Origin: Ignavibacteriota bacterium
Lineage (GTDB): Bacteria; Bacteroidota; Ignavibacteria; UBA10030; UBA6906
Length of the DNA stretch: 64,000 nt
NCBI GenBank assembly: GCA_963801355.1
Contig: CAWDEM010000008.1
Coordinates: 1,664,001-1,728,000 of the forward strand
Direction of reading: 5' to 3'
Positions 33,815-63,937 of the stretch are shown here, one piece after another. Made by a program: the position numbers and the translations under genes. Below the pieces are notes generated by a model. It saw nothing but the letters and a program-made list of their open reading frames with translations, was not told where the DNA came from and did not search any database. Each line of letters starts with the position of its first letter. Position 1 is the stretch's first letter.

Positions 33815-35731
33815 TCAGTTTCGGTCCCTGTCCTCTGCAATCAGTAACGGCAACAACGTATCCATCTGCGAGAAATCAGGGATAATCAGATCGGCACCGG
33901 CCTCAATCAGCCTCTTGCGTTTTGATGTGCTCAGGCCGTAGCGCCGCACTTCGTCGCTCGCTATGCCGATGGCATACCCGCCCTTCTTGTGGGTCTCCCG
34001 GATTTCCACGGGGCCATCGCCGAATGTGAAGATCCGTTCGGGTGCGGCGTTGCCGATATCCTCAAGAATTCTTTCCAGCACCATCCGCTTTGCCTCTTTG
34101 GTGACGTCACCCACCGCACCATATACACGGGGGCCGAACAACCCGCGATAACCAAGACTGACAGCCTCACGCTCTACATCTTCCTGGTCGGTTCCGCTCG
34201 CAAGGTAGAGGACGATCCCACGCGCGTGCAGGGCCTGAAGAAAACCAACCGCATTCTTCATCGTGACGTCGGTAACATCGAGCTGGCCCAGCCGCAGCTT
34301 CTCCATTCTCACCCCCACCATCCGCAGGAGCTCCTGGTTGTACATCTTCTTGTAGCCGTGTTCATCGAGGATGTCACATTCTCCGACACATTTGAAGCGA
34401 CGCACGAGATTGACGAGCATTTTCATCTGCACGAGCGTTTGCATGCCGGTGGTGTTATCAATGGTGGAGCGAACGCTGGCAACGACATGATCGTAGAGAG
34501 CTTCATCGACATCCCGTTCCTTCGGGCCGAGGATAGCCTTCACCATCATCGGTTCCATAATCCCTTCCCATCCCTGACGGAGGGTCGAGATCGTGCCGTC
34601 GTGATCGAAGATGGCATGGGTGAACGTTCTGCTCCGCGGGAGAGTGCTGACGACTTCGATTTCGCTGCCCGAATGATAGACCGCCTTGCGGGGTTGCCGG
34701 GCAAGGTCCGGCCTGTAGCGACGGTCCGGATCAGATCCGATGCTCATGATTTCTTCCGGCGATGCCGTCCCGGTTTGCATCAGTTTTTGGACGGTGACGC
34801 CCGCAACAAGGTTGCCGAATTCCGCTGCCGCGACGTTTTCGGTGCCGACGGCCAGGGCAGCCGCAATACCGGCCAGGGTGCTGTCGCCCGCACCCACCGG
34901 ATCCACGGGAGACAAAATGAGGAGCCCCGGGATCTCCGTGAACCCCCGTTGATCGAACACCGCGGCACCCCGCTCGCCGCCGGTCATAAACACGCTGTTG
35001 CCCCAGCGCTGGAAAAGCTCGCGCGCGAAGCTTTCGATCTCCCCGGAGTCGATGGACTCCCAGTTGATTCCGCCTTTACCGCACAGTCGTGCAGCCTCGC
35101 GCAGATTCAATTTGCGGACGGCGTTCCCGTAGTCATTTGCATGGTGCCGCGAATCAACCAGGAACAGCGTGTCCGGGTGTTCTCGAATGAACTTCCCGAG
35201 AGTCTCCCTGAACCACTCGACATGGATGCCCCGGATCACCTGCTGGTTGATGATGACGACGTCGAGGTCCGGGAGTTGTTTCGAGAGGCTCTCCAGAAGT
35301 TGCGCTCCGGTTCTGGGGTGAATCTCGTTGAAGTTGCCGAAGTCCAGACGGGGCTGTTCCTGTTCTCTTTCGTACGGCTTCAGGTACACGTGCGTGTCCC
35401 ACTGTTCGCGCTGTACAACGAGACCCTCGACGGTCATTCCGCCAGACACGAGGATATCCCGCATTTCCTTGCCGTACGGGTCCTGGCCGACAACACCAAT
35501 TGCCGATACATGCCCCACTCCCATAGCCCGGAGGTTGTTTGCCACGTTACCAGCCCCACCCAGCGCGTAGCGTTGTGAGCGCACCGGGTGGGTTGCAAGT
35601 CCGGTTTCAACCGAAAGCTCTGAAGCTGATGGATCGAGCAGGAGATAGACGTCAAGACAAAAATCGCCGAGAATGCCGATCCGTGCCCGCTGGATGTTTG
35701 TGAGAAGTTCCTGAAGTTCGAGCCGATTCAT
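33815..35731 (-). CDS. PfkB/RfaE(HldE)-like sugar kinase fused to a HAD hydrolase
   Basis: GDFCLD, GGAGNVA, DPVGAGD in the N-terminal half; FDHDGT, LASGT, FGDGPVE in the C-terminal half. Confidence 0.85.
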   Translation of the reverse strand: MNRLELQELLTNIQRARIGILGDFCLDVYLLLDPSASELSVETGLATHPVRSQRYALGGAGNVANNLRAMGVGHVSAIGVVGQDPYGKEMRDILVSGGMTVEGLVVQREQWDTHVYLKPYEREQEQPRLDFGNFNEIHPRTGAQLLESLSKQLPDLDVVIINQQVIRGIHVEWFRETLGKFIREHPDTLFLVDSRHHANDYGNAVRKLNLREAARLCGKGGINWESIDSGEIESFARELFQRWGNSVFMTGGERGAAVFDQRGFTEIPGLLILSPVDPVGAGDSTLAGIAAALAVGTENVAAAEFGNLVAGVTVQKLMQTGTASPEEIMSIGSDPDRRYRPDLARQPRKAVYHSGSEIEVVSTLPRSRTFTHAIFDHDGTISTLRQGWEGIMEPMMVKAILGPKERDVDEALYDHVVASVRSTIDNTTGMQTLVQMKMLVNLVRRFKCVGECDILDEHGYKKMYNQELLRMVGVRMEKLRLGQLDVTDVTMKNAVGFLQALHARGIVLYLASGTDQEDVEREAVSLGYRGLFGPRVYGAVGDVTKEAKRMVLERILEDIGNAAPERIFTFGDGPVEIRETHKKGGYAIGIASDEVRRYGLSTSKRKRLIEAGADLIIPDFSQMDTLLPLLIAEDRDRN

Positions 35732-35786
35732 ATGTTTGTACCCGTACGGGTGGACTGCCTGATGAAGGGGTTATGGTGCGCGGGTG

Positions 35787-37804: not shown

Positions 37805-38881
37805 TCACGAAACCCCCATTTTCGAAGGGTAATATTCCTCGAGCTCCGTCCCTAAAATCTTCCCGGCAAGCACAACACTGTCAGCACCCGCGTAGGGGAA
37901 ATAGAGGTCCCCTTCGTAGAAGTATGCGCCGCAGACGAATACTACATTGTTCACCCCCAGGTCGGCGTCACCAGTCGTCTCTGCGGGCGTTGATGGTCGA
38001 AGAAGTGGTTCATCCCGCCTGACGATGAACTCCGGTGCACTGGGATCGGCAACGGCAATGCCCAGATCGTACTCACGATCACCGCTTGAACGTCTGTTCC
38101 CGATGTGATATAACACCAGGAAGCGTCCGTCAGGAAGCGAAATCGGAGGGGCTCCCCCGCCGATCCAGACATCCTTGAATTCAGGATTTGGCAAAGGTTT
38201 CATCACCACTCCCCGGCTTCCCCATTCCCCCGCGATGTCATCCGCCTCAGCACAATGAATTGCCATTGCATCCGGGCCTTCCATCGGTCGATGAAACAGC
38301 AGGAACTTACCGCCCACCTTTCGTGGAAACAACATGGCATTCTTGTTATCGATCACGTTGAACGCACCCCGGACCAACCCGTACTTTCGCCAGTGGACGA
38401 GATCTTCGCTGCCGGCCATGGCAATGCGTATGCTGTTTCTGTCGGCCCCCGATCCGTAGCCACAATAGCACATGTAAAATCTGTCGCCTATCCGCGTCAC
38501 GCGGGGGTCTTCCACGCCAAGGTTGTCATAAGCGCTGTCCGCAAGGAGTATCGGTTCGGAGTGCCTCGCTAATAGCTCAAGCCTGGGCGTGAGCACAGCC
38601 AGCCCTATTGCGGAACGCCGGTGATCATAGCTGGTTGTCGGCTCCCCTTGCGCTCGATAGAACAGAAATGTCAGAGACCGGTGCGCCGCAAGTTCCCTAC
38701 GGACTCCATCAGCAAACGGGAGAGCCGCAATGATCCTGTCCAGTGTCGCCCGATCCTCAACCAGCACAGACGCTGGGTTGAATACCACTTTGTTCTCCCA
38801 CGGATGGCTTTCTTCTCTCCGCAGGATGGGCCGGCCATTGTGAAGACGTTGCACTACCGGCAGCTTTCGAGAACCGTTCAT
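37805..38881 (-). CDS. GH130-family beta-mannoside phosphorylase/glycosidase
   Basis: VFNP, YRA, GVEDPRVT, NKNAMLFP, HRP, GGGAPP, NVVF, YAGAD. Confidence 0.85.
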   Translation of the reverse strand: MNGSRKLPVVQRLHNGRPILRREESHPWENKVVFNPASVLVEDRATLDRIIAALPFADGVRRELAAHRSLTFLFYRAQGEPTTSYDHRRSAIGLAVLTPRLELLARHSEPILLADSAYDNLGVEDPRVTRIGDRFYMCYCGYGSGADRNSIRIAMAGSEDLVHWRKYGLVRGAFNVIDNKNAMLFPRKVGGKFLLFHRPMEGPDAMAIHCAEADDIAGEWGSRGVVMKPLPNPEFKDVWIGGGAPPISLPDGRFLVLYHIGNRRSSGDREYDLGIAVADPSAPEFIVRRDEPLLRPSTPAETTGDADLGVNNVVFVCGAYFYEGDLYFPYAGADSVVLAGKILGTELEEYYPSKMGVS

Positions 38882-38927: not shown

Positions 38928-39986
38928 TCATTGGATATAATCTTTCAACTCCGCCCCACCGATTCGCCCCGCAAGCACAACGCTGTCGGCTCCTGCATAC
39001 GGGAAATAGAGATCTCCTTCGTAGAAGTACGCAGCGCAAATGAACACGACGTTGTGGACTCCCAGATCAGCATCACCCTTGATTTCGGCAGGTGTCAGAG
39101 GCCGAAGAAGCGGTTCATCTCTTTTCACAAAGAATTCCGGCTTGGACAGATCGGCAACGGCAATCCCCAGGTGGTATTCCACCTCGCCGTTCATGCGGCT
39201 GTTACCAATGTGATAGATGACCAAAAAGCGACCGTCGGGAAGAAGGATCGGAGGAGCGCCTCCGCCAACACGAGTTTCTTTGAATTCCGGATTCGGCAAA
39301 GGCTTCATCACCACACCGCGGCTTGTCCATTCCCCCAACACATCATCCGCTTCTGCAATGTGGATTGAAAACGCGTCTTTCCCCTCCATCGGTCGATGGA
39401 ACAGTAGGTATTTCCCTCCCACTGTGTGCGGGAACAGCATCCCATCCTTGTTGTCAATCAGGTTGAACGCGCCACGGAGCAAACCGTGCTTTTCCCAATG
39501 GACAAGATCAACGCTGCTGGCCAGCGCAATGCGCATCCTCTTCTTGTCCGTACCTGAATGATAGCCGCAGTAGCACATGTAAAATTTCTGGCCGATCCGC
39601 GTGACCCGTGGATCTTCCACACCGAGGTCGTCATACGAACTGTTCGGCAAGAGAATCGGTTCGGAGTGTCTGGCCAGCAGTTCAAGCCTGGGAGTGAGCA
39701 CAGCCAGCCCCAATGCAGAACGCCTGTGGTCGTAACCGGTCGTCGGCATTCCCTGCGCCCGATACAAAAGGAATGTGAGAGACTGTTGTGCCGCCAATTG
39801 CTTCCGGACGGCATCATCGAAGGGAAGCGCCGCAATGATTCTGTCAAGTGCCTCCCGATCCTCAACCAACACGGCCCCGGGGTTAAACACTACTCTGTTC
39901 TCCCACGGATGGTGTTCTTCTCTCCGCAACAGAGGCTGGTTGTTACGAAGACGATGTACAACCGGCAATTTCCGGAAACCTGTCAT
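38928..39986 (-). CDS. GH130-family beta-mannoside phosphorylase/glycosidase (tandem paralog)
   Basis: VFNPGA, GVEDPRVT, NKDGMLFP, HRP, RVGGGAPP, NVVF, YAGAD. Confidence 0.85.
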   Translation of the reverse strand: MTGFRKLPVVHRLRNNQPLLRREEHHPWENRVVFNPGAVLVEDREALDRIIAALPFDDAVRKQLAAQQSLTFLLYRAQGMPTTGYDHRRSALGLAVLTPRLELLARHSEPILLPNSSYDDLGVEDPRVTRIGQKFYMCYCGYHSGTDKKRMRIALASSVDLVHWEKHGLLRGAFNLIDNKDGMLFPHTVGGKYLLFHRPMEGKDAFSIHIAEADDVLGEWTSRGVVMKPLPNPEFKETRVGGGAPPILLPDGRFLVIYHIGNSRMNGEVEYHLGIAVADLSKPEFFVKRDEPLLRPLTPAEIKGDADLGVHNVVFICAAYFYEGDLYFPYAGADSVVLAGRIGGAELKDYIQ

Positions 39987-40041: not shown

Positions 40042-43000
40042 CTATCGTAACACCAACATCTTGCGGGTCTGCAAGAAATCCCCCGCATGCATTCTACAGA
40101 AATACAACCCGCTTGCCATGCCTTTCGCGTTCCATGTCACCTCATAGCTTCCCGCCTCTTTTCTTTCATCCACCAGCACTGCCACCTCGCACCCCAGAAG
40201 GTTGTAGACGCTGAGTTTCACTGTACGGGTTCCGTGTCCCGGGTTCTGTAGCCCGAAACCCGCAACCCGAAACCCGATAGTGGTGACCGGATTGAACGGA
40301 TTCGGATAGTTCTGCCCTAGCGCACACGCCGCAGGAACTCCTGCCGGATCTCCTGCCTTCACCGAAGTTACGACAAGCGATGCGATCTCCTGTAACGAAA
40401 GAGCGTAATCATAGATTCGTATCTCGTCGAGCACGCCGTTGAAATTGTAGTTGTTGTCTCCAGGCACGCTCTGCCCGATGGTCAATGCAGATGTCGTCGT
40501 GTTGACCGGACCGGAAAAAGGCGCAAATGCATCAAGCTGTCCGTTGAGATAGAGCTCGAGGTCCGACCCGTTATACCAACCCGTCACGCTGTACGTGCTA
40601 TCCAGTGCGAGTGAGGTCTCTCCATCCAGGTCTTTAATCTGGCCCAGCGAATTTTTCAACGTAAACCGGAGTCTGTTGGTGCCCGGTGAAATGGAAAGTT
40701 TCCAACGGTTTTGCCAGTTCCCATGCGAAATCGGATATTGTTCGCGATTCGTGTAGAACATACCAACGTGCATCCAGATATTCACGGTCATCGCATTCTG
40801 AAAATTTAGACCCGGGTCGTTCGGCACGACAATAGTCCCTGTCGTCCCATCGAATGCATAGGCGCTATTGATATGCCCGGAATGGTCGCTTGTCAGCTGT
40901 GCATTATTGACAGTTCCGTCGTGTCCGTGACCCGTCGCATCATTTGCATTGCCGCTGAATGGGTAGTATGCCACGAGCGACCCCGTCTGGATGACCGACA
41001 GATCCCGCACTTCAAGCCCAACGCTGTCGAGGTCCCAGCCACCAAACCCGTCATCAACGCGGCAACGCACGTAGTAGTTGCCAACCGCGGAAGGCGCCGT
41101 CCATGTCACCGCGCTCCCTGTGCCGCTCAGCGCGCCCGATGCCGAGGACCAGGAGTACCATGCTGTATCGCCGTTCGCATCGCTCGCCAGACACGTGATG
41201 GTTGACACTCCGCCCGGGTTGAGCTTGCGCGGAACCGCGCTGAAACGCTGTATGACGGGCTGAATGTTGACACGCTCAACGACGGTGAGCGTGTCAGTCG
41301 CTGCTGCCTCCCCGCCACGCCCGTCGATGACAGTGCACGTGACCGTACACCGTCCGGGTACTGATGGCGCAGTCCATTCGATCCATGATCCGCTCCCGGC
41401 CAGCGTGCCACCGGATGTGCTCCATCCATAGCTGAGCGTATCTGTGTCTCTGTCCGTTGCCGTGCAGAATATTCTGACCGACTTGGCCACTCCAATGTTT
41501 GTTGAATCCGGTGCAAGGCTCTTGATCCGCGGAGGATGGTTTCCTGTTGTCCCCCCGGATCGATAATCGACAACGACACCGTTAATGAGCGTCTTGTCAA
41601 GATCGTGCGTCATCGATCCTCCCGAAGGTGCTATCACGACCACGACGGCCGCATTGGCCGGAATCCTTACCGTCGCCATGCCGCTCACTCCTTGCCGCAC
41701 GATGGTCTTGGTCACCGTATTGTAGAGGTCGTGTGTCCCTTCTCCAACATCAAGCACAACGGAGGTATCGGAGCCATACGGATTGAAATAGAGGTACGTC
41801 GGATACGCCGCGCCGTGAAAATAGTCCGTCGCGAGCAGATCGAGACGAAGTATCATCGACACGTCTGTCGTGTCGATGAGTCCGGCGAGAATTCCCACAT
41901 GAGATGCGCCATACAGGGCGTAGTTCGTCGGTGCCCAGCCGTTCCGGAGGGCGTCGCCGGTAGCAAACGGACTGATCGTGCCACTCGTCGGGTTAAATTG
42001 ATGCATCGCTTCATAGGCGATAGTCGAATGCGGATCGTACTGATGTCCCCACCCTTCACTGTCCTGATGGTCATCGGGCAAGAAGTCCGTGTAGAATAGT
42101 CGTGCGGCATTTGCTGCATTCAGCATCCACTTCCCAATTGCCCTGGCATACCGGTCATCGTAACGGACGAGCGGAACGAGTGCCCCTGCCTGCTCTACGG
42201 TGTTCATGAAAAATGGATAGTCGTTGCTATGATTGACCTCACCGATCAGCCCGGAACAGTCGTAGCCACCCCATTTCCCTACGGTCACTCCCCATTGCCG
42301 CAATGTCCCGTCACCGTCGGCGAAGCACCAATGAAGCATCTTTGTGAGATCGTACGTGGTTCCGATTTCACCGTTCATACGGGCGGCGATGTACGCACCA
42401 TAGGGAAGCTGGAGCTCATACGACGGGTTGGTCGCATATACGAGAAGTGACTCCAGCGCGATTTCTGCGCCGATCCTATACCGCGCATTGCCGGTCTTCA
42501 CATATGCCTGATACAGTATCCACGCGATGGCTCCCGCCGCCTCCGGTTCCACGACCCCGTTGTTGTTAGGAGTCATCGTTGAGAGATCAAAAGCTCGGTG
42601 ATGCACGTTGGCCAAACTCCAGGGAGCCGTGGTGCCACCCATCGCATTGATCGCTGCCAACCAGCGATCTGCAACCGCGACGAACTGATCCGGGAAATCG
42701 GCGGTTGACGGGTACAGGGAGTGGAGCTGGTAGAAGAAGACGTTTGGCATCGTTTCGTACCACCAATCATCTCCCGTCGAGGCACTTGCAGAATTCAGAT
42801 AGACGTTCTGTCCGTTCGCTTTGTTGAACCATTCGCGGCACATGAGGACCCAGTTGACGCCGTTCTGATTGCTTTTGTCGATACCGGCGAGGCTCGCTCC
42901 CACGACCGCAGGGATGCAGTTGATCCCCTCACCGCGTCCCAGTGTGCCACCAACATACGATTGGAGCCCGAAGCTTGTCTGTCCGGGATAGTTCACCGTC

Positions 43001-43236
43001 GCGGTATAGGTCTTCGAGAGAGGCAGATATTGCCCCATCGCCGTGACATCGAACACCAGCGAATCATATCCCCGGGCCGCGCCCTTCCAATCCCTCATGA
43101 TATACGGAGAGGGGATATTCGGCATGAGCTCAATTCTCCCGATGGCAATCTGCTGGGCTGACACTGTTGCGGCGGCAAGGCACACCGCCGCTACTGAAGC
43201 AACAATGCAGCCCCCTGAAAGATGACGGTTCTTCAT
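40042..43236 (-). CDS. Secreted multidomain protein: unassigned helical glycosidase-like domain, two Ig/PKD-like domains, LamG jelly roll, T9SS-type CTD
   Basis: Signal peptide; two 'C.A.D...D...Y.WS...G.L.G.GS...WTAPS..G' repeats; LVAYYPFSGNAND...FNGVLDEIRIY; QNYPNPFNP. The catalytic role is inferred only. Confidence 0.72.
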   Translation of the reverse strand: MKNRHLSGGCIVASVAAVCLAAATVSAQQIAIGRIELMPNIPSPYIMRDWKGAARGYDSLVFDVTAMGQYLPLSKTYTATVNYPGQTSFGLQSYVGGTLGRGEGINCIPAVVGASLAGIDKSNQNGVNWVLMCREWFNKANGQNVYLNSASASTGDDWWYETMPNVFFYQLHSLYPSTADFPDQFVAVADRWLAAINAMGGTTAPWSLANVHHRAFDLSTMTPNNNGVVEPEAAGAIAWILYQAYVKTGNARYRIGAEIALESLLVYATNPSYELQLPYGAYIAARMNGEIGTTYDLTKMLHWCFADGDGTLRQWGVTVGKWGGYDCSGLIGEVNHSNDYPFFMNTVEQAGALVPLVRYDDRYARAIGKWMLNAANAARLFYTDFLPDDHQDSEGWGHQYDPHSTIAYEAMHQFNPTSGTISPFATGDALRNGWAPTNYALYGASHVGILAGLIDTTDVSMILRLDLLATDYFHGAAYPTYLYFNPYGSDTSVVLDVGEGTHDLYNTVTKTIVRQGVSGMATVRIPANAAVVVVIAPSGGSMTHDLDKTLINGVVVDYRSGGTTGNHPPRIKSLAPDSTNIGVAKSVRIFCTATDRDTDTLSYGWSTSGGTLAGSGSWIEWTAPSVPGRCTVTCTVIDGRGGEAAATDTLTVVERVNIQPVIQRFSAVPRKLNPGGVSTITCLASDANGDTAWYSWSSASGALSGTGSAVTWTAPSAVGNYYVRCRVDDGFGGWDLDSVGLEVRDLSVIQTGSLVAYYPFSGNANDATGHGHDGTVNNAQLTSDHSGHINSAYAFDGTTGTIVVPNDPGLNFQNAMTVNIWMHVGMFYTNREQYPISHGNWQNRWKLSISPGTNRLRFTLKNSLGQIKDLDGETSLALDSTYSVTGWYNGSDLELYLNGQLDAFAPFSGPVNTTTSALTIGQSVPGDNNYNFNGVLDEIRIYDYALSLQEIASLVVTSVKAGDPAGVPAACALGQNYPNPFNPVTTIGFRVAGFGLQNPGHGTRTVKLSVYNLLGCEVAVLVDERKEAGSYEVTWNAKGMASGLYFCRMHAGDFLQTRKMLVLR

Positions 43237-44752: not shown

Positions 44753-45772
44753 TCAGAATTCTGCGTTCGGTTTTATGATGCTCTTGAGCGTCCTCCCCTC
44801 CCTCAACGCGGCAAATGCTTCATCTACCCCGTCAAGGGGAAATTCCTGAATCATGAGCTCATTGGTGCGTACGGTGCCCGCATGGAGGAGCGCCGCCGCC
44901 CGGGTAAAAGTATACGGGTTCACGTAGGAACCGACGATGGTGAGCTCATTGAAGTAGATCTGATGAGGCTCTACGGGAATCGAGACGCCGATCGGACAAA
45001 CACCAAAGAACTCCACAACCCCGCCACGCCTTGCCAGATGAAGGCTCGACTGCATCGTGGCCGGCTTCCCGACGCATTCTATCACTACATCCGCACCGAC
45101 TGCAGTGTGTTCATAGACCACCGCGGCGACATCCGCCGAGGATGGATCAACCACCAGATCCGCCCCGAGCTTCCGGGCAATTGCGCGCTTGTGCTCCAGC
45201 GGTTCAACCAATATCGTGACCGCTGCACCAGCGTTCTTCACCAGCTGGAGCATGATGAGCCCGACTGTACCTCCGCCCACAATGACGACGGAATCGCCGG
45301 CTTTGATGCCGGCCTTATCAAGACCATGTACCGCACACGACAGCGGCTCAATGAAGGCCCCATTCTCGGGTGCCATCCCGGACGGGAGGAAATGCAATTG
45401 CTCCCGCGGAACGATACAGAATTCAGCCATACCGCCGTCAATATCAACCCCGAGTGCCCGCAGACCGGCACAGAGATGAACAAGGCCGCGCCTGCAGTAG
45501 AAGCACGTGCCACAAGCAATATTGGGGTCGACTGCCACCCGGGATCCCCCGGGGATCCCCACCACGCTCCCCGGGTCCTCGACAACTCCGGAAAACTCAT
45601 GCCCGAGAACCACCGGCGGCGCTGAGCGGGAAGTCCCATCGACAATATGCAGATCGGTCCCGCATATGCCGCACGCCGCGACACGGACAAGGACTTCGTT
45701 TTCTTTCAACCGGCGCAGCTCTTTCTGGACAACTGACAATACGCCCGGTTTCTCAAACAATGCCGCTTTCAT
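44753..45772 (-). CDS. Zinc-dependent alcohol/polyol dehydrogenase (MDR family)
   Basis: CGICGTD, GHEFSG, CGTCFYC...C, GGGTVG, DVVIECVG. Confidence 0.92.
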   Translation of the reverse strand: MKAALFEKPGVLSVVQKELRRLKENEVLVRVAACGICGTDLHIVDGTSRSAPPVVLGHEFSGVVEDPGSVVGIPGGSRVAVDPNIACGTCFYCRRGLVHLCAGLRALGVDIDGGMAEFCIVPREQLHFLPSGMAPENGAFIEPLSCAVHGLDKAGIKAGDSVVIVGGGTVGLIMLQLVKNAGAAVTILVEPLEHKRAIARKLGADLVVDPSSADVAAVVYEHTAVGADVVIECVGKPATMQSSLHLARRGGVVEFFGVCPIGVSIPVEPHQIYFNELTIVGSYVNPYTFTRAAALLHAGTVRTNELMIQEFPLDGVDEAFAALREGRTLKSIIKPNAEF

Positions 45773-51331: not shown

Positions 51332-51332
51332 G

Positions 51333-54008: not shown

Positions 54009-57000
54009 CTACTTCATGATGGCAAACCGGTCGATTTTCGTCCCGATCCCCGGGGCATCGACGTGGTAGACGTACACCCCGAACGCGATGTCCATACCGT
54101 CGCGGGATGTCAGATTCCAGGCTTCCTGTCCGTCGGCGAATGTGCCGTGGTGTTCCAATATCTGCACCAGATGCCCGCTGATCGTGTAGATGCGGATCGT
54201 GCACGCCCGCGGGAGGTGGATGAAGAAGACCTTGCGCTCCCCGCGTCCGACACTTGTGGTTGCCGGCTCCCATGAGGCAGCTCCTACGTAGGGGTTTGGC
54301 ACGACGGCGATTTTGTCAAGGTCCTGCTTCGCTTGCGCAGGGTCAAAACGGGGCGCCACTGTGGTGAACGAAAAATACTCACCCGACCGAAACGGCTTCG
54401 TGGTGACCACGCGGAACACATCGCCCGGCTGCGGAGGCCGCTGCAGCGACTCAGCGATTGTGGTGTCTTTGACGAGAGTGACCGACCAGCTGAACTTCGC
54501 GCTGCCGAAGTCCGCCGCAGGCTTTCCCGCCGAATCCCCCACCACAATGTAGAGTGCGTCGCCGTCATTGAACGTGGTATCCTCTTTGACATCCCTGAAC
54601 ACAAACTGGATGTGATCCCTGTCCTCGGTCAGATTCTTAATCACGATGTTCGACGGCGCCGGTGACGAAAACCCCGTGCTCGGGAATGAGAGGTCACCCT
54701 GCGCCCCGGGCTTCAGCGTAATTTCAAAATCCGCCGGATAATTGACCCGCCGTGTCTGGTACGCTGGTGCATATCGTGAATCGAACCCCACCTGCACAAT
54801 GTAGTTGCTATTTCCCTGCACCCAGCCTGTCTTCTCCGCGTTGACCGTGACGTACTGGTGGTTGCTGACCACGGTGTTGAACCCATGGAGAACAGATGAC
54901 ACTTCCTGCTGTCCCTTAAGCCGGCTCAGCCGGAGAAGCGTATCCCGGGTCGTCACATTGATCAGCCGGTAGTACGGATTGGGGTTGTCATGAAACGCCG
55001 CGGAATCGACGAACTCCGCACGATAGTTGTGTCCGTCACGCAGCGAGTCGAGATCAATGATCCTTGCCGTCAGGCTCCCCGTTCCCGGACCGGATTGCGA
55101 CACCACAATCGTCTTCGGAATGATATATCCTGCGGCCGCAGCACGCGGAGTGACGACAGCCGTGTTGACATCCACCTTTGACACGCGGCCGTTGATGTCC
55201 AGTTTGATCATACTGGTCGTTTCCGAGGGAGGAATGCCCAGAAATGTGCCGGTGATATTTGTCGTGTAAAACCCCTGATCGTACGCCGTGACCGCGTAAT
55301 AATACGTCTGCCCGTTCTGTACCGTCGAGTCGACATAGGAATGAGAAAGACCCCCGTCGTCACCGAGATTGAACAGCGCACCATTGACGTCTATAGGGTG
55401 CAATCCCTTCACACCATCCACAACATCGAACTGCGCGAGCGGTTTCCGATAGGTCGGCTTGCCATACGCATCGGTGATGAGCTGGTTCTCCAGGAAATTG
55501 GCCTCGGTGCTTCTGTAAATCTTGTATCCTTCGAAATTGTATTTCTGATAGAAAGCATCGAAGGTCTTTTCCGCCCGTTCATCCCAGTACAGCGTGACCC
55601 TACCGTCCCCTGCAATGGTCTTCACAATGGGTTTCTCCGGCGGTTTGGCAAAGCGATAGCTCGCGTTGTAGATTTGCTGGACCGTTTTTTTCCGCCTGAA
55701 GAGGTCACCGGGATCCAACCCGTATATCAGCGCCATGGAAAAGCGCTCGGTCTCGCCGGTTTCCTGAATCTTCCCGGTGCGCGTGCTGTACGTGTTCCGG
55801 CCGAACAGATGGAACATGTAACTTGAAAAGTGATTGGCGAGATTCACACCGATCAACGCCGGTTGCTGATCCGGAGGCGCCGGTGCGGATGACAGGCCAG
55901 TCCAGTTCCTCTCGTCATTGTTCAGATCATAGGTGTGCACGGGCGAAAGGATGAACCCGGTGAGACCCAGCTGGTCCGATTCATCTTTGTCGAGAATGCC
56001 GAAATTCGGCTCGCCCTGCTCGGGCCTCCCGTCTCCTTCTGAACCATCCGGATCGGCCCCGGGATACCCATCATCAAAAGGACCGATGCCGTCGGCGCCG
56101 ACGTCATCGTTCAACGGTTCCCCCGCAGCCCAGGCGCCGTCGCCGTTCAGGTCAGTGTAGGCGCGCCAGTTGCAGTTCTCATCGGCATCCCAGTGAGGTT
56201 TCCAGGATTGGCCGTAAAACTTGTTGAACCGGATGGTATCGGAGAGTGCGTCACGCAGAAAAGGATCGGTGAGTGGATTGGTGATGAACTGCACGGCATC
56301 GTTGTCGCGCCGCTCATCGGTCAACCCATCTTGATCGTTGTCGGAGTGGTCATCCGAGATTCCCGGACTCTCGAGAAAAGCATATCCGACGTATCCGACA
56401 GGGCTCCACTGCCCCGGGCTCCCGAAGCTGACGGTGGACCATGAATACGAGATGTTCAGCAGTTTGTCATAGCTGCCAGCATTGTTCGATGAGTTGTCGT
56501 GCCCGCCGATCCCCCAGTCAACGTACTGCGCAAAGAGGGTCCGGGCGTAATCGGTGGTCCCCATATTGGTGATTTCGTAGTACCAGAAAATCACATCCTC
56601 GGCCAGGACTTGCGACCACTGGAATCCGCGGCCGCGGACCTGCATACCCAGGCCGCCCCGCGTGGAATCATCGGCGTCGGGATGGAATTTGTTCTTCAGG
56701 AGATATTCGCGGTCTTCGTTGTCATCAAACACAAAATAGGACTCGAGATCCGCATTATACACGCCCCTCCCGAAGAAGCCGTTCCAGTAGCCGTCCCAAT
56801 CGCTGCCCCGGTCCGGCCAGTGGTTCGGCCAGGTGTTCGGATCGCTGCTTTCGGCAGGGCTGGACTGATACCGCGCCGCATAGTTGGGCAACGGCCACCA
56901 GCCGTATGTGACGGTGCTGCCCGATGGTGCCCGCGTGTATTCGTAGTAGTTCGTCTCGAGCGGATGAATCGTGTTTCCCTGCGGATCCTGTGTCTCCGCC

Positions 57001-57269
57001 TGCACGATGACGGCGACACCGTCAACATACGTATGATTGGTTCCTTTCGGCCATACGCCGCTCCTGCTCGGCTCGTTCTGCCAGTCGGCAATCTCGCCGA
57101 AGTTGTAGTAGACCGTCCCGACAAGGTTGCCATCCATGAATCCTTTCTTGGTCTCGAAGTGGCTTCCCTTGTTCTTGTCCACCAAGCGCTGTGCCGTGAC
57201 GCCCGATGCGACAAGAACGACGAGCGAGGCGATAAGAGCGCTTCTGCCTGGTAAAAGTCTCCAAAGCAT
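54009..57269 (-). CDS. Large exported protein with Ca-binding DxDxDG repeats, an Fn3-like domain and a divergent T9SS-like C-terminal domain
   Basis: GGAGG Shine-Dalgarno, signal peptide; DNDQDGLTDE, DLNGDG; AGDGRVTLYWD...FEGYKIYRS...YYYAVTAYD; IAVVPNPY...IRIYTISGHLV...WNL...GVYVYHV. Confidence 0.8.
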   Translation of the reverse strand: MLWRLLPGRSALIASLVVLVASGVTAQRLVDKNKGSHFETKKGFMDGNLVGTVYYNFGEIADWQNEPSRSGVWPKGTNHTYVDGVAVIVQAETQDPQGNTIHPLETNYYEYTRAPSGSTVTYGWWPLPNYAARYQSSPAESSDPNTWPNHWPDRGSDWDGYWNGFFGRGVYNADLESYFVFDDNEDREYLLKNKFHPDADDSTRGGLGMQVRGRGFQWSQVLAEDVIFWYYEITNMGTTDYARTLFAQYVDWGIGGHDNSSNNAGSYDKLLNISYSWSTVSFGSPGQWSPVGYVGYAFLESPGISDDHSDNDQDGLTDERRDNDAVQFITNPLTDPFLRDALSDTIRFNKFYGQSWKPHWDADENCNWRAYTDLNGDGAWAAGEPLNDDVGADGIGPFDDGYPGADPDGSEGDGRPEQGEPNFGILDKDESDQLGLTGFILSPVHTYDLNNDERNWTGLSSAPAPPDQQPALIGVNLANHFSSYMFHLFGRNTYSTRTGKIQETGETERFSMALIYGLDPGDLFRRKKTVQQIYNASYRFAKPPEKPIVKTIAGDGRVTLYWDERAEKTFDAFYQKYNFEGYKIYRSTEANFLENQLITDAYGKPTYRKPLAQFDVVDGVKGLHPIDVNGALFNLGDDGGLSHSYVDSTVQNGQTYYYAVTAYDQGFYTTNITGTFLGIPPSETTSMIKLDINGRVSKVDVNTAVVTPRAAAAGYIIPKTIVVSQSGPGTGSLTARIIDLDSLRDGHNYRAEFVDSAAFHDNPNPYYRLINVTTRDTLLRLSRLKGQQEVSSVLHGFNTVVSNHQYVTVNAEKTGWVQGNSNYIVQVGFDSRYAPAYQTRRVNYPADFEITLKPGAQGDLSFPSTGFSSPAPSNIVIKNLTEDRDHIQFVFRDVKEDTTFNDGDALYIVVGDSAGKPAADFGSAKFSWSVTLVKDTTIAESLQRPPQPGDVFRVVTTKPFRSGEYFSFTTVAPRFDPAQAKQDLDKIAVVPNPYVGAASWEPATTSVGRGERKVFFIHLPRACTIRIYTISGHLVQILEHHGTFADGQEAWNLTSRDGMDIAFGVYVYHVDAPGIGTKIDRFAIMK

Positions 57270-57293: not shown

Positions 57294-60078
57294 TCAGAAT
57301 CCCAGCGTCGCGCCCAGAACAACCTGGCGCGGCGCCGAGAAAATACTCCGGACGTGTGTAGTACTGCTGAATACTGTTGACGCCCAATGGTGCCTGCTTT
57401 GACCGGGTGAGCTCAAGAGTGTACTGCGCACGCCCTGTATCACCGAACACGTTCAGCTCATTCGCGGTATCGAACAAATTGTAGGCTTTGAGAAATACCG
57501 AAACGCGAAACGGGGTGAACGTGAACTCCTTCGTGGCATACAGATCCACCGTGAAGAACATGGGCTTGTTGTCGCTGTTTTCCAATCCGGTCCGCTGGTT
57601 TTGCAGCGACGGCGTGTACGGAAGCCCCGACCCGATCCGGCTGATCAGACTGGCGATGAAATCCCCCGGCGTCCCCACCGATAATGTCACGTTCAACGAG
57701 TGCCGGCGGTCCCACGACAGCGGGACCAGTTGTTTGTTCGCCTCGATCGGCGGACTCGATTGTGCTTTGTTGTAACTGTCATTGGGATCCGATGCGTTGC
57801 CCTGCGCCACCTGCAACGTATAATCGATGTTCGCCCCGAAGCCACCTACCAGCCTCTTTTCGAGCGCAACGGTGAATCCCTTCACCGAGCCGTAGTCCAG
57901 GTTGACGTATTCCCCGTACTTCTTCAGATTATTCTTGATGTGCACAACGATCCCCAGGAGGTTCCGGATGTCCTTGTAGTATCCGGTGACCGTGAATCCC
58001 AGTTCGGGAGTCAGTTCCTGCTGCAACCCGATTTCGTACATTGTCGTGCGCTGGGGCTGCAGGTCGGCATTCCCGATCGTGTTGCCGACGAACTCCGGCG
58101 AATCGCCCGTGAGCGGAATCCTGAGATTGGGGTTTCGGTAGAGATAGTCGAACGGCGGGATCTGGAAGAAGTGTCCGTACGAAATGTGCACGGCACCCCG
58201 GTCGGTGATGGGGTAGGAAAGCCCAACTCGCGGACTGAATTGCGACTTCGCACTGGCCTTCCCGAAGTATCGCTCCGGATACGGCGGCGCCAGAGAATCC
58301 AGATCGGCAACCTGATCCGGATAGAGCAATTTCTGCCCGTCGGGCTGGAAGTAGTCGTATCGGAGCCCGACGTTCACGACGAGATATGACAGCTCGATTT
58401 TATCCTGCAGGTAGACCGCAAACTGACGCGGGTGGTTGACATAGTAATTGAAGTCAAAATCTCCCGGCCGCGATATCGTGGGAACAAAGCCGCTTGCGGC
58501 ATCCACGTGTATCTGAAAGTCTTTGTATTCGAGCCGGTGCAGATTCACTTCACTGCCAAACTTCAGCTGATGCACCGGCGTCACTTGCGCTGTCACATCA
58601 ACCCTGCCCGTGATGGTCTGCGTGTTGTGATTGAAATGCCAATTCTGCGTGCCACCCGTCAGGTACGCATTCGCCCCGGCATCCCTCATCCGCTCGGGTT
58701 TCACATAACGGGGATCGACAAACACCGAGGCAAGCAAGACCGGATCAGTTGGCGGATCGAGCGGGTCTTCGTAGACATACTGCTTGAAGTCACTGGTGAA
58801 GACGGACCCGGTGACATCCATGAACATTGCGTCATTGAAAACATGTGTATAGCCTGCGCTCCCCATGAAACTCTTCTGGAACTTTGTGTAGTCGCCGTCG
58901 GGATTGAGCTGAAACCTGTAGTCATAGTCCCGATATTTCTGGCGCTGATACAGGCCCGTCAACACGATACCCTTGGCGCTTCCGACTTTCACCGCAAGCT
59001 TCCCCTGCAGACTGGTCCTGTCCTGATAGTTCATTGGCACCAGCGCGCCGTCCCCTGTCGCACCGATGTGCCAATTCCGTACATCCTCGCCGGCAAAACT
59101 TGAGGAATCAGAAGGATTGAAAATGCGCCTACCGTAAATATATCCGTCATCGTAGAACCTGCGGCCAGAGAGATAGAAGCTCATAAGCCCGTCGGACAGC
59201 GGAACAGGGCCGCTGAGACTTCCCTGGATGTTATACAGCTTAGACGGGGACCCGCTGTGGAAGAAAGCCGATGGTTCGGCCAGAACGGGAAAACCGCCAA
59301 CAGGGAGCTCGCGGGATATGGTCTTGAATTGGTCTCCACGCGTGCTTACGTAATCTCCGGTGTAGAACGTCACTTCACCTTCATACTTTTCGCCGGCAAT
59401 TTTCGTTATCTGGTTCACAACGCCCGAAAGCGCTTCACCATATTCCGCGTTGAACGTCCCGCTCAGAACTTGAATCTCCTGTATGCTGTTGACTTCGGCC
59501 TGCATGGTGAAGTTGCCGGAGAACACATCATTCACCGAAACGCCGTCGATCAGATACTTGACCTCATTTGCACGGCCTCCACGGAAATGCCCTTCAACGA
59601 CCCCGGCCTGAAGGTTCACCACGGAGCTCACGTCTTCCACGGGTATTTTGGAAAGTTGATCACTTCCGACCGAGGAGGTGGTGGAGGTCAGATCGCGCTG
59701 CACAATGGGGCGTGTAGCCGTAACGATCACATCGCCGATTTCCACCATCTGCGGTTGAAGCTGGAATTCGATTCTGGTTGTCTGATCAGCAGTGACGTTG
59801 ATACCGTTCACTGCGACGGATGTAAACCCCACGCTGGATGCCTTCAAGTCGTACCGTCCCGGCGGAACATTCAGGATGAAGTATTCGCCTTCGATATCGG
59901 TGGACGCACCCATGGTGGTGCCGGTAACAAGAACGTTTGCGCCGACCAGGGCTTCCTTGGTCTGTGCATCGATGACCTTCCCGGCGACCTTTCCGGTGGT
60001 GCCCGCCCGCAGAGAGGCGCAGAGACACACCGGCAGGATCACCACGAGACACAACTGCTGAACTATGCGGGTCCGCAT
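57294..60078 (-). CDS. TonB-dependent receptor with N-terminal carboxypeptidase-regulatory-like domain; apparent +1 frameshift at 57340-57343
   Basis: GTTGKVAGKVID...LVGANV, HFRGGR.NEV.YLIDG, GTFNAEYG, YLQDKIE, FSPRVG; removing one base gives ...YFSAPRQVVLGATLGF* (terminal Phe) and removes a 248-bp overlap with the next gene. Confidence 0.92.
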
Positions 60079-60157: not shown

Positions 60158-63100
60158 CTACTTCAACATCAACATTTTCTGCACAAGGGCAGATTGACCT
60201 GCTTCCAGTCGGTAGAAATAGAGACCGCTGCCGACCGCTCTTCCGAGGTCGTCCTTGCCGTCCCAGGTCACTTCGTACCGCCCGGCCGCACGTGCTTCAT
60301 TGACAAGCGTCCGCACCCTCTGACCGAGAACGCTGTAAATCATCAGAGTGATGTTCCCATCCCGCGGCATGGCATATTGGATCTTCGTCGAGGGATTGAA
60401 AGGATTCGGATAGTTCTGGCCCAGCTCGAACGTGCTTGGCACCGCGTCACCATGCGTGACACCGGTCGTCGCACCCACAACCTCAACGGTGAGGTCGTCA
60501 AAGTAGATCGTTCCGGTGAAGCGCGCATACACATGCAGACGCACTTCAAGGGCTGTTGCATTCACTCCTGTGGGTACTTCGATGTCCAGCGTGTATGGCG
60601 TCCAGTTGAATTGCGTCACACGCGGGAATGTGAAGGTATAGTCAATCCCAGGCCCGACATTGCTATAGCCAAGGTTATTCCCGTTGCCCGTGAAAAAGAG
60701 CGGTGTGAATCCGACCGACCACGTCCCGGGATACATCGCTGCAGAATCCGGTACCAGATTGCTCGCTTTGATCCAGACCGTCAGCCGGAGGATGTCGCCT
60801 GCACGTGCGCTGATCGTTGTGATGTCTTTCGTGGAGCTTGTCGCATTCAGGAGACCGTTGCCGGCCGAAGCATCAAGCATGAAGCGCTTCGTCCCGACGA
60901 ACCCATCATGGGGTACCCGGTCGAACGGCAGGTCGAACTTCAGCGAGTATACCCCGCTGTGCGCGGCTTCCGAGGTCACCATCGTGTTCTCGAAACCGTC
61001 GTTCAGCAACCCGTCGTTCCCGCCGTTCGGCGGCAGCCAGTAGTACCACCCTGTCGGCACACCCAGGTTTGTGTTCCAGTCCTGTCCGGCCCAGGCACCT
61101 GCACGACCGTAGAACATGAAGTCGTCCGCCCACACCGTCCCTGTTGCATTCTTCCCTGCCACGAACTTCACGATCGTCTTCCAGGCATCCTTCGGAAGAA
61201 TCACCGATCCCACCGCGTTCGTGTCTGCTATCCAGCCGCCGCTTGATGCCGCACTCTGGCTGACCGGCAGCTTCACCGATCCGATCAATGCACCCGCACT
61301 GTCCCAGAACGTGTACGATATATACCACTTCGCATCTTCCGTCGCCGGTGCCGTGTTCACACCCTGCGTCCGCACGTATGCACCCAGGAAGATGTCCACG
61401 TTTTTCGAATGCGTCGGTGACCAGATGTCGCACATGTTGTCCGATATCCACGCCGCTGAATCCGCCGTCGCCGACGGTTTCACGATCTTCAGCGAATGAC
61501 CCATCGTATGGGACTGATCCGTCGCCCAGCTCAATGTCGCACCTGCCGGCTCGTTCCCCTTCGTCCAGTACGACGGCAGTGTCTGCTCGAAGCTCCCGAT
61601 GCCGCTGATAGCAGGAACATCAAGCTTCTCTATCGTCAGATCGTCGAAATAGATGGTGCCTGTGAAGCGGGCATAGACATGGAGACGCGTCTCGAGGGCT
61701 TTGGCATTCACACCCGTCGGGACCTGAATATCCAGCGTGTACTTGGTCCAGTCAAACTGCGTGACCGCCGGGAAGGCCCACGTGTAGTCATTCCCCGGCC
61801 CGACATTGCTGTAGCCAAGGTTGTTTCCGTCGCCGGTGAAAAAGAGAGGTGTGAGTCCTACCGACCATGTGCCCGGATACATCGCTGCAGAATCAGGCAC
61901 GAGGTAGTTCGCCTTGATCCAGACGCTGATCCGCAGCATGTCGCCTTCCTTGATACCCTGCAAGCTGGTAAGGCTATTGACACTACTCATGCCAGCCGGC
62001 ATGGCGCTGGAGCCGTCAAGCATGTACCTCCTCGTCCCGACAAACCCATCATGGGGTACCCGGTCGAACGGAAGCTCGAACTTCAGCGAGTATGCCCCGC
62101 TGTGTGCAGCTTCCGAGGTCACCATCGTGTTCTCGAAACCGTCGTTCAACAACCCGTCGTTCCCGCCGTTCGGCGGCAGCCAGTAATACCACCCTGTCGG
62201 CACTCCCAGGTTCGTGTTCCAATCCTGACCGGCCCAGGCACCTGCACGACCGTAGAACATGAAGTCGTCTGCCCACACCGTCCCTGTTGCATTCTTCCCT
62301 GCCACGAACTTCACGATCGTCTTCCAGGCATCCTTCGGAAGAATTGTCGATCCCACCGCGTTCGTGTCTGCTATCCAACCGCCACTTGATGCCGCGCTCT
62401 GGTTGACCGGCAGCTTTGCCGTCCCGATCAGTGCGCCCGCACTGTCCCAGAACGTGTACGAAATATACCACTTCGCGTCTTCCGTCGCCGGCGAGGTGTT
62501 CACACCCTGCGTCCACACATATCCACCGAGGAAGATATCTACGTTCTTCGAATGTTGCGGTGACCAGATATCGCACATGTTGTCCGATATCCACGCCGCT
62601 GAATCCGCCGTCGCCGACGGTTTCACGATCTTCAGCGAATGACCCATCGAGCGGGACTGATCCGTCGCCCAGCTCAATGTTGCTCCTGCCGGTTCGTTCC
62701 CTTTCGTCCAGTAGGACGGCAGTGTGCCTTCGAACCCCCCGATCTTGGCAACTTGAGGTACATCCAGTTTTTCGATCATCAGGTCATCAAAATAGATGGT
62801 GCCCGTGAAGCGAGCATAGACATGGAGACGCGTCTCGAGGGCTTTGGCATTGACGCCCGCCGGGACCTGAATATCCAGCGTGTACTTAGTCCAGTCAAAC
62901 CCCGTGACCGCCGGGAAGGCCCACGTGTAGTCATTCCCCGGCCCGACATTGCTGTAGCCGAGATTGTTTCCGTTCCCGGTAAACCACAGCGGCGTGAGTC
63001 CGACCGACCACGTTCCGGGATACAACGCCGCAGAATCCGGCACGAGGTTGCTTGCCTTGATCCAGACGCTGATCCGCAGCATGTCGCCTTCCTGAATCGG

Positions 63101-63937
63101 CACCCCTGCGCCCAGATCTTTGAAGAGATAACGTTTCGTGCCAACGAATCCGTCATGCGGTACGCGTGTGAACGGCAGGTCGAACTTCAGCGAGTATGCC
63201 CCGCTGTGTGCGGCTTCCGAGGTCACCATCGTGTTCTCGAAACCGTCGTTCAACAACCCGTCGTTCCCGCCGTTCGGCGGCAGCCAGTAATACCACCCTG
63301 TCGGCACTCCCAGGTTCGTGTTCCAATCCTGACCGGCCCAGGCACCTGCACGACCGTAGAACATGAAGTCGTCTGCCCACACCGTCCCTGTTGCATTCTT
63401 CCCTGCCACGAACTTCACGATCGTCTTCCAGGCATCCTTCGGAAGAATTGTCGATCCCACTGCGTTCGTATCACCAGCCCAGCCGCTAATCGTGGCAACA
63501 TTCTGATTGATCGGCAGCTTTGCCGTCCCGATCAGTGCACCCGCACTGTCCCAGAACGTGTACGAGATGTACCACTTCGCGTCTTCCGTCGCCGGCGACG
63601 TGTTCACACCCTGCGTCCGCACATACGCACCGAGGAAAATGTCCACGTTCTTCGAATGCGTCGGTGACCAGATGTCGCACATGTTGTCCGATATCCACGC
63701 CGCCGAATCCGCCGTCGCAGACGGCTTAGCGATCTTCAGCGAGTGACCCATCGAGCGGGACTGATCCGTCGCCCAGCTCAACGTTGCCCCTGCCGGCTGG
63801 CTCCCGATCGTCCAGTACGACGGTAGTGTGCCTTCAAACCCCCCGATTGCGGTCAGGTTTGCGGGCTGTGCAAATCCCGACCAAGCCACGAGGGCAGTCA
63901 GGACCAACAACCATAAGATACTTGTACGCCACATCAT
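60158..63937 (-). CDS. Secreted protein with three tandem ~370-380 aa CBM-like units and a FlgD/T9SS-type C-terminal domain
   Basis: GGAGG Shine-Dalgarno, signal peptide; 3x (GxFE...AHS/SLKI...VWADDF + ...IYFDDL); QNYPNPFNP...WDGKDD.G..VGSGLYFYRL. Confidence 0.85.
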   Translation of the reverse strand: MMWRTSILWLLVLTALVAWSGFAQPANLTAIGGFEGTLPSYWTIGSQPAGATLSWATDQSRSMGHSLKIAKPSATADSAAWISDNMCDIWSPTHSKNVDIFLGAYVRTQGVNTSPATEDAKWYISYTFWDSAGALIGTAKLPINQNVATISGWAGDTNAVGSTILPKDAWKTIVKFVAGKNATGTVWADDFMFYGRAGAWAGQDWNTNLGVPTGWYYWLPPNGGNDGLLNDGFENTMVTSEAAHSGAYSLKFDLPFTRVPHDGFVGTKRYLFKDLGAGVPIQEGDMLRISVWIKASNLVPDSAALYPGTWSVGLTPLWFTGNGNNLGYSNVGPGNDYTWAFPAVTGFDWTKYTLDIQVPAGVNAKALETRLHVYARFTGTIYFDDLMIEKLDVPQVAKIGGFEGTLPSYWTKGNEPAGATLSWATDQSRSMGHSLKIVKPSATADSAAWISDNMCDIWSPQHSKNVDIFLGGYVWTQGVNTSPATEDAKWYISYTFWDSAGALIGTAKLPVNQSAASSGGWIADTNAVGSTILPKDAWKTIVKFVAGKNATGTVWADDFMFYGRAGAWAGQDWNTNLGVPTGWYYWLPPNGGNDGLLNDGFENTMVTSEAAHSGAYSLKFELPFDRVPHDGFVGTRRYMLDGSSAMPAGMSSVNSLTSLQGIKEGDMLRISVWIKANYLVPDSAAMYPGTWSVGLTPLFFTGDGNNLGYSNVGPGNDYTWAFPAVTQFDWTKYTLDIQVPTGVNAKALETRLHVYARFTGTIYFDDLTIEKLDVPAISGIGSFEQTLPSYWTKGNEPAGATLSWATDQSHTMGHSLKIVKPSATADSAAWISDNMCDIWSPTHSKNVDIFLGAYVRTQGVNTAPATEDAKWYISYTFWDSAGALIGSVKLPVSQSAASSGGWIADTNAVGSVILPKDAWKTIVKFVAGKNATGTVWADDFMFYGRAGAWAGQDWNTNLGVPTGWYYWLPPNGGNDGLLNDGFENTMVTSEAAHSGVYSLKFDLPFDRVPHDGFVGTKRFMLDASAGNGLLNATSSTKDITTISARAGDILRLTVWIKASNLVPDSAAMYPGTWSVGFTPLFFTGNGNNLGYSNVGPGIDYTFTFPRVTQFNWTPYTLDIEVPTGVNATALEVRLHVYARFTGTIYFDDLTVEVVGATTGVTHGDAVPSTFELGQNYPNPFNPSTKIQYAMPRDGNITLMIYSVLGQRVRTLVNEARAAGRYEVTWDGKDDLGRAVGSGLYFYRLEAGQSALVQKMLMLK
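60475..63847 (-). repeat. Three near-identical intragenic tandem repeats of about 1.1 kb
   Basis: Units begin at 63847, 62743 and 61600 (periods 1104 and 1143 bp) with long identical DNA stretches. Confidence 0.93.

Follow-up and report, generated by a model that had tools for sequence, protein, structure and literature searches.

A gene triad of TonB receptor, tailed supersandwich protein and PorV-family barrel in a probable beta-mannoside locus of an Ignavibacteriota bacterium

How might a glycan be captured at the cell surface by a locus that encodes neither SusC nor SusD? The question is raised by a run of genes in a stretch of 64,000 nucleotides from an Ignavibacteriota bacterium (GenBank assembly GCA_963801355.1, contig CAWDEM010000008.1, positions 1,664,001 to 1,728,000 of the forward strand). 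The whole stretch is called the window here, and gene positions follow its numbering. From the letters alone, an earlier sequence-only reading had proposed that positions 33815..63937 hold an alternative design of polysaccharide utilization locus (PUL), in which a TonB receptor works with a large secreted protein and a PorV-like barrel, and an ATP-binding cassette (ABC) importer serves the inner membrane. The genome holding the window comprises 4.8 Mb and is 100% complete with 0.14% contamination. All of the noted open reading frames (ORFs) were present on the minus strand, in the order described, with intergenic gaps of -4 to 135 nt. The family calls were also upheld by profile searches: TonB barrel, plug and CarboxypepD N-domain, Rotamase_2, SBP_bac_1/8, two BPD_transp_1, Zn dehydrogenase, LamG, two GH130, CHASE kinase and PfkB-HAD.

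The SusD profiles PF07980 and PF14322 gave no match in the locus or in the whole genome, while the control, B. thetaiotaomicron, was positive; the lack of SusD claimed for the locus is therefore genome-wide. No protein of the genome passed the cut-off of the SusC model TIGR04056. The receptor of the locus (57294..60078; CarboxypepD N-domain, plug and barrel) scored 78 bits against a cut-off of 368, and only at its N-terminus, in line with the earlier impression that it lacks SusC signatures, and it was placed in a non-SusC subfamily of TonB-dependent transporters. A profile of 63 receptor barrels found no PDB match at E<=0.001. The lipidated partner of SusC/SusD PULs was also missing: the 1086-aa protein encoded next to the receptor (54009..57269) has a signal peptide without lipobox Cys, and its only cysteines are at positions 366 and 1023. 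The clustered carbohydrate-active enzymes (CAZymes) and the regulator of such PULs were found, namely two GH130 enzymes, a GH94/MGH1-like protein and a LacI with operator. In every respect on which a decision could be reached, the outer-membrane core differs from a SusC/SusD system, yet it is deployed like SusCD.

The 1086-aa protein matched no Pfam or NCBIfam model and fell into unnamed clusters of the Atlas. Its best 120 homologues were 68-88% identical, and at E<=0.001 it matched 4130 clusters (50% identity), with Calditrichota and Marinimicrobia labels among the members. The structure model (predicted local distance difference test score 88.7, predicted TM-score 0.78) was mostly beta, with a beta-supersandwich head at about 27-543, an FN3/Ig-like stalk and a tail at about 976-1086. 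The head aligned with the N-domain of dextran dextrinase (VIA Z 20.2, root-mean-square deviation (rmsd) 3.2, 260 aa; Z 20.3 for the head alone). In the model it resembles the N-terminal supersandwich of glucoamylase and of GH15/GH94/GH116/GH149 enzymes, with no catalytic helical barrel after it; the other Foldseek matches were FN3/Ig arrays. An Asp-rich insert at 305-435 of the head looks like calcium sites. SusD was not among the matches listed in three fold searches, which alone is no exclusion, and the model is mostly beta. Neither a SusD match nor a SusD-like fold was thus found for this protein. Judged by its model, it is probably not a SusD and resembles a glycosidase-type beta-supersandwich without the catalytic barrel.

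The tail pointed to type IX secretion. It aligned with the PorZ structure 5m11 (Z 12.2, rmsd 2.2, 90 aa, 29% identity), and a profile of 17 such tails found PorZ at E 1.6e-7 and PorU at 8.6e-4, followed only at 3.7 by the 75-aa chain 8glk_D. The PorZ alignment was limited to residues 977-1086 and left the PorZ body unmatched, so a PorZ orthologue was rejected for the 1086-aa protein. No match was obtained to the type A tail models TIGR04183 and PF18962 at E<=0.01, or to the type B model PF13585. The sequence-only reading had called this protein type IX secretion system (T9SS) cargo; a secretion-type tail is indeed present, but the standard models do not recognize it and the tail belongs to a divergent class. 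The PorV paralogue suspected beside it was confirmed as a dedicated PorV/PorQ-family barrel (52951..53979; NF033709 200.7 bits, cut-off 90), not PorP/SprF. In PorZ and PorU the tail is retained and keeps the protein on PorQ and PorV, respectively; cognate barrels were suggested to shield the tails from cleavage (PMC10202324). For type B cargo, anchoring to cognate PorP-like barrels has been shown (PMC9143113). Given the PorZ-like tail and these precedents, retention on the neighboring barrel is the natural inference, and we consider it quite probable that the 1086-aa protein lies at the surface, uncleaved and bound to its barrel.

The same three genes recur throughout the genome. Seventeen of the 21 PorV/PorQ-family genes sit with a receptor of the same subfamily and a large unannotated protein. 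A tail profile built solely from homologues of the window 1086-aa protein selected 18 proteins in the genome. Seventeen of them had both a PorV paralogue on the same strand and a receptor no more than 8 kb away, and for 15 the distance was at most 500 bp. For canonical type A proteins, the same test gave 20/204 (<=8 kb) and 4/204 (<=500 bp). In three genomes of two other families, all strong tail matches (E<1e-20; 10/10, 7/7 and 11/11) were within 8 kb of a PorV-family gene, and 9, 7 and 10 of them directly adjoined it. Receptor, tail and barrel similarities correlated across the 17 triads (Mantel rho 0.70-0.75). From this gene content, the triad is a genome-wide device in 17 copies, and the triad rather than the whole locus is what is new.

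The paralogous triads also bear on what the large protein does. Between loci, the heads vary widely in size (610-1229 aa) and sequence, with tail and FN3 region shared. No Pfam match exceeded the cut-off in the 16 paralogous middle proteins; one reached PF13585 at E 8e-4, below cut-off. In a neighbor scan of the 16 other triad loci (52 chosen ORFs), eight loci had glycan- or peptidoglycan-degrading families: GH94 with a Glycoamylase-family protein (beta-glucan), heparinase, GH28/GH43, alginate lyase and chondroitinase, GH13/CBM20, GH38, GHL10 with NlpC/P60, and amidase. It may be supposed that the large protein is itself an enzyme or epimerase, tethered to the barrel and making oligomers near the receptor without contacting it. 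Catalytic domains do occur among supersandwich relatives, for instance in GH174 fucanase (Z 14.7) and in mutarotase-like proteins (Z 13), and the head conserves D174, E176, D183, R214, Q217 and W162. On the other hand, one head family occurs in starch, beta-glucan, xylan and mannoside loci, none of the 16 paralogues matches a CAZyme Pfam family, and the best matches are non-catalytic N-domains. We regard an enzymatic role as unlikely.

A purely structural role was also weighed, in which the large protein and its barrel form an assembly unit, cap or pedestal, of the receptor family and bind no substrate. The arrangement can be likened to BamG-BamH on BamA and to PG1035 on PorP: in the Bacteroidota beta-barrel assembly machinery a FadL/PorV-like barrel holds a surface protein beside a larger barrel (PMC12578637), and PG1035 was proposed as a protective cap (PMC9143113). 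The tightly linked chaperone gene and the several triads without CAZyme neighbors are compatible with such a cap. Variable heads on a shared tail and FN3 region, however, are the pattern to be expected if a specificity module sits on a common mount, and the structural role is held to be rather improbable. A complex prediction of the receptor barrel (without plug) with the PorV-like barrel of a relative (L001) scored 0.26 against a mark of 0.32 and is not evidence.

Several triads showed features of their own. In the pectin (L096:5740-7257) and alginate (L098:6851-8296) triads, the PorV-like gene is succeeded by a second gene for a FadL-like barrel. Middle proteins of L091, L093 and L097 carry an extra C-terminal extension on the tail; the flanking genes encode Ser/Thr kinases at L097 and a two-component pair at L093, and no CAZyme was noted at these two. 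Triads L100 and L103 stand beside amidase/SpoIID and NlpC/P60/epimerase/GHL10 genes, which suggests peptidoglycan scavenging. L104 (C8:2713957-2729439) consists of two paralogous triads tail to tail. At L107:3418-6906, the gene for a BNR/propeller protein with FlgD-like tail precedes an unassigned gene and then one of the PorV family, a candidate PorZ-PorQ pair.

The conservation of the locus was examined in 80 GTDB loci, the best 80 of 198 matches and all kin, with only loci long enough counted for each gene. The receptor gene was directly upstream of the large protein in 79/79 loci and the PorV-like barrel downstream in 76/76. The gene for an exported SurA/PPIC-like peptidyl-prolyl isomerase, a putative chaperone (51333..52913; Rotamase_2 E 1e-7), was in place in 75/75, the ABC binding-protein gene in 70/70 and each permease gene in 68/68. 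The gene order read from the window is thus real and was kept in every relative locus long enough to show it. Upstream, a LacI gene (64073-65113, just beyond the window) heads the unit, and lacI and the adjoining carbohydrate-binding module (CBM) repeat gene were found in all 26 relatives with enough upstream DNA. A perfect 22-bp palindrome upstream of lacI overlaps a sigma-70-like -10 (core C8:1729223-1729240); in the 26 relatives the best CG-centred palindrome at this place had 6-9 of 9 pairs, a figure that carries no shuffle control. Five closer relatives could be extended downstream. There the order was kept as far as the LamG gene, beyond which come a GH2 beta-mannosidase and a single GH130.

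The unit extends from lacI to the GH130 genes and is probably a LacI-controlled operon for the use of a beta-mannoside glycan, going by gene content. The extent of 30 kb given by the sequence-only reading was overstated, as the CHASE kinase and PfkB-HAD genes at its end are not conserved parts. They were absent from all five extended loci; PfkB-HAD lies on another contig in G018 and was not found in the locus-bearing relatives G011, G013, G017 and G022, and both genes were rejected as members of the unit. The kinase (CHASE-PAS-HisKA_2; 35787-37682) has no adjoining response regulator and is not conserved at this place. The other gene (33815-35731) encodes a fusion of an RfaE/HldE-like PfkB kinase with a HAD domain and occurs in 12/31 relatives, unlinked to the locus. 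A promoter and terminator scan of 33000-45000 gave nothing usable.

What glycan might be used was approached through the enzymes. The two GH130 proteins (38928..39986, cytoplasmic, and its tandem duplicate, 37805..38881) carry the EDPR, NK and HR motifs and were closest to beta-1,2-mannoside phosphorylases, the best PDB matches being 9fj8 (E 4e-34) and 7fip (E 4e-33). In 5/5 extended relatives, each with a single GH130 copy, a GH2 beta-mannosidase gene (E 2.6e-198 to 5n6u) stands between the LamG and GH130 genes. Loci of other relatives contain GT4 together with GH130. The same combination is found in the beta-1,2-oligomannan cluster of Thermoanaerobacter (PMC4264767). The sugar ABC binding lipoprotein (50005..51331, end approximate; SBP_bac_8/1) matched Lmo0859 best among PDB entries (E 6.9e-36; next 2.7e-18). 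We take the gene for Lmo0859 to neighbor that of a Listeria beta-1,2-mannobiose phosphorylase. These homologies make a beta-mannoside the likely substrate; for a beta-1,2 linkage the indications fall just short of an even balance.

At the inner membrane, a binding protein and two BPD_transp_1 permeases of CUT1 type (permease 1, 49113..49943; permease 2, 48307..49116) are encoded, and no ABC ATPase gene was found in the locus. One MalK/MsmK-type ATPase in the genome passed the UgpC cut-off (C8:1981402-1982499) and is a candidate in trans; all of the sugar ABC permease sets, about six, probably depend on it. This gene and the lacI of the starch triad locus (L099) are divergent, and a related palindrome lies between the two (C8:1981213-1981230). 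ABC uptake, which the sequence-only reading had made part of the design, holds for the present locus but not for triads in general: an ABC binding protein was near only a few of the other 16, and sodium:solute symporters were at several. A rotamase gene is also present within this genome's starch triad locus and in a xylan triad locus of genome G032.

Together, these results suggest the following mechanism, which we favor by a narrow margin over a coin toss. Three parts would make up the outer-membrane core: a TonB-dependent importer, a large protein at the surface and a barrel of PorV/PorQ type private to it. The 1086-aa protein would cross the inner membrane by Sec and then leave through the SprA translocon by means of its C-terminal tail. 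The tail would not be cut by PorU and would remain on the neighbor-encoded barrel, like PorZ on PorQ. The stalk would place the supersandwich head near the importer, where the head would capture oligosaccharide and pass it on, the job of SusD in Bacteroidia. That the protein works with the receptor as capture partner is, for us, an evenly balanced proposition. Two type A cargo proteins (CBM repeat and LamG) may bind or cut polymer outside. In the periplasm, exported glycosidases would trim, and the ABC binding protein and permeases would import short oligomers with the trans-encoded ATPase. The GH130 phosphorylases would finally release mannose-1-phosphate from a glycan that is most likely beta-1,2-mannan or its oligomers.

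A number of results weigh against this proposal. Supersandwich folds are often non-binding or catalytic, and the fold alone is no proof of capture. Co-divergence of the three genes is expected from co-duplication alone, two triads are reordered, and half of the paralogous loci had no CAZyme among the scanned ORFs. The GH130 proteins scored 164-166 bits against an NF052550 cut-off of 450, and the window lacks the GH2 gene present in relatives, with the genome's GH2 homologue located elsewhere (C8:2618506-2620936). As for secretion, GldM was found in 0/41 genomes of the class, although its model was positive in 38/151 phylum genomes. GldK gave nothing at E<=1e-10 and GldN only E 7e-4, below cut-off; divergent homologues are possible.

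Moreover, the triad coexists with SusC/SusD elsewhere. In a sample of 150 phylum genomes and the present one, the tail was found in 35/36 genomes of the class and SusD in 9/36 (1-2 matches each, counts limited by scoring). Among genomes with three or more such tails, 35/66 also carried SusD, and strict mutual exclusion of triad and SusD was rejected. In G032, a single xylan locus even contains a triad together with a SusC-like/SusD pair. Its first half reads lacI, receptor, large protein, barrel, CBM9, GH10 and rotamase, and after the rotamase follow SusC-like, SusD, GH67 and two GH3-like genes. The large protein there is 36% identical to the window protein over the full length. The triad is therefore not a strict or simple substitute for SusCD, since both coexist in other genomes and even in one locus. 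The alternative PUL design holds in so far as SusC/SusD are absent and a tailed protein is paired with a PorV paralogue, but not as a strict SusCD replacement.

The missing motor components raised a further possibility. SprA was over cut-off in 41/41 genomes of the class, the present one included. A C25 peptidase gene adjoins a PorV-family gene in this genome, so that SprA, PorU and PorV are all represented, and about 200 proteins bear canonical type A tails. GldL was not found either, in a search without positive control. As GldM, GldK and GldN were not found, standard motor-driven T9SS export is not to be assumed, and the class apparently has a motor-less type IX system. The TonB-dependent barrel might then export the tailed protein or energize its extraction, which would make the triad a secretion and display module and not an importer. 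This would suit the contrast between SprA (41/41) and GldM (0/41), and the single GldM match, below cut-off, among the 66 tail-rich genomes. Moreover, the TonB-dependent transporter Oar, with the same type of N-terminal domain, is needed for PopC secretion (PMC6434023). However, the roughly 200 type A proteins have no partner receptor, so export does not need a receptor for each; SusC, too, falls under the Oar architecture; the locus has LacI, ABC and catabolic enzymes of the kind typical of import; and the GldM/SprA pattern comes from few independent lineages. An exporting receptor is thus very unlikely.

A broader reading of the same pattern appears unlikely. According to it, non-Bacteroidia lineages of the Fibrobacteres-Chlorobi-Bacteroidetes group would possess a motor-less T9SS (SprA, PorU and PorV, no GldKLMN), with a retained-tail module fused to TonB transport. 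Each receptor would have its own barrel-mounted partner, and TonB energy would import the substrate and maybe help to place the partner. If true, the fused retained-tail/TonB machine would represent an outer-membrane machine of a new class and add a third class to T9SS sorting.

The proposed barrel-tethered capture partner was compared with known systems. SusC/SusD (RagA/RagB) PULs likewise have a TonB transporter gene followed by a partner gene, many paralogous pairs beside different CAZymes, and a local regulator. In contrast to them, the receptor here is not SusC, and the partner is beta-rich, 1086 aa long, without lipobox and with a secretion tail; the triad adds a third gene for the PorV-like barrel, and the inner-membrane step at the present locus is ABC. 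With PorZ-PorQ and PorU-PorV of Porphyromonas gingivalis the triad shares a PorZ-like tail, by profile and fold, and a PorV/PorQ-family barrel partner. It differs in the body of the protein, in its 17 copies per genome and in being tied to a transporter gene, not to attachment machinery. Type B cargo (SprB-SprF, PG1035-PorP) also pairs one cargo gene with an adjoining private barrel gene, with probable non-covalent anchoring, whereas the triad tail did not score as type B, its barrel is of the PorV family, and it is transporter-linked. The Thermoanaerobacter X-514 cluster (Teth514_1785-1796) shares the CUT1-type ABC importer and GH130 phosphorylases, and GT4 with some relatives. Unlike the present locus, it belongs to a monoderm, has no outer-membrane module and encodes its ATPases within the cluster; GH130 identity to it is low and does not establish the linkage.

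No description of the triad was found in the literature searched, whose coverage was incomplete and without supplements, nor in the accessible portions of PMC5317091, PMC12204202 and PMC6539836. In the Rhodothermus marinus xylan locus, a TonB receptor and then two hypothetical proteins, the first with a putative Por tail, are listed upstream of susC/susD, and no interpretation is given of these receptor-adjacent hypothetical proteins (PMC6987092, Table 1). By analogy with the G032 locus, whose gene order is partly different, we infer that these genes are a triad. Ignavibacteriales were described as having many CAZyme clusters and few susCD genes, most clusters without a matched substrate, and the available part of that source names no substitute (PMC10576277); PUL prediction is keyed to susCD (PMC5753385). 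If the triad is a capture-and-import unit, it would be a new marker for utilization loci in Ignavibacteria-type lineages. Its large proteins would also be a new family of surface binding proteins, and type IX secretion would gain a third rule of sorting by tail and barrel. The triad may be an undescribed second way of nutrient capture at the cell surface, and it makes export through SprA without a recognizable motor a testable question.

The remaining genes of the locus encode mostly exported proteins. The CBM-repeat gene (60158..63937) specifies a secreted 1259-aa protein with three repeats of about 370 aa starting at residues 37, 405 and 786, probably tandem CBM4/9-like modules. Its Atlas look-alikes were CBM_4_9 at 0.93, a lead only, and a PDB sequence search with the repeats gave no match. 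The LamG gene (40042..43236; same position in 5/5 extended loci) encodes a secreted 1064-aa protein with N-domain, Ig/PKD and LamG domains, a candidate surface endo-enzyme; its N-domain had no significant PDB match. Both proteins carry type A T9SS tails, the former by TIGR04183 (29.7 bits, over the cut-off of 23) and the latter by PF18962. An exported six-hairpin glycosidase-like protein with a GH94/MGH1-like catalytic domain is encoded at 45779..48278, followed by a Zn-dependent sugar/polyol dehydrogenase (44753..45772; ADH_N/ADH_zinc_N), which relatives keep at the same place or beside lacI. The gene at 43233..44714 encodes an exported homologue of PDB 7tem (YPO2471; E 4.6e-74) and was present in 55/80 loci within the 10-kb flank. 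It had been called a helical lipoprotein; a lipobox-like motif occurs in only 17/51 homologues, which does not bear this out.

The receptor, binding-protein and glycosidase genes are frameshifted in this assembly, near 57340 (by one base), 50205 and 47600, with a further frameshift at 50077 in the binding-protein gene. In relatives, each of the three is a single unbroken ORF. One base fewer was seen in short-read contigs from related organisms at 57340 (1/4 runs), 50205 (2/4) and 50077 (3/4); for 47600 this comparison gave no row. The breaks in the receptor and binding-protein genes are probably assembly errors because related short-read contigs lack those bases. Pseudogenes were rejected, as the genes are intact in relatives and, for two of them, the extra bases are absent from short-read contigs. 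The true receptor end is near 57294, with no overlap with the next gene, and the start of the PorV-like gene (342 aa) is corrected from 54273 to 53979. Several further genes are split by frameshifts, for example at C8:2713957-2717030, C4:1210541-1213724 and in the GH2 gene mentioned above, so the split ORFs of this assembly need care.

Elsewhere in the window, a phosphate uptake cluster (12461-17574) comprises porin O/P, a PstS-like protein, two permeases and an ATPase. The region 23697-33811 encodes GH3, a GH78-like rhamnosidase, a DUF5916 protein and a T9SS-tailed glucose/sorbosone dehydrogenase, and, on the plus strand, a small T9SS-tailed protein (220 aa) that bears a CxxxxCH motif.

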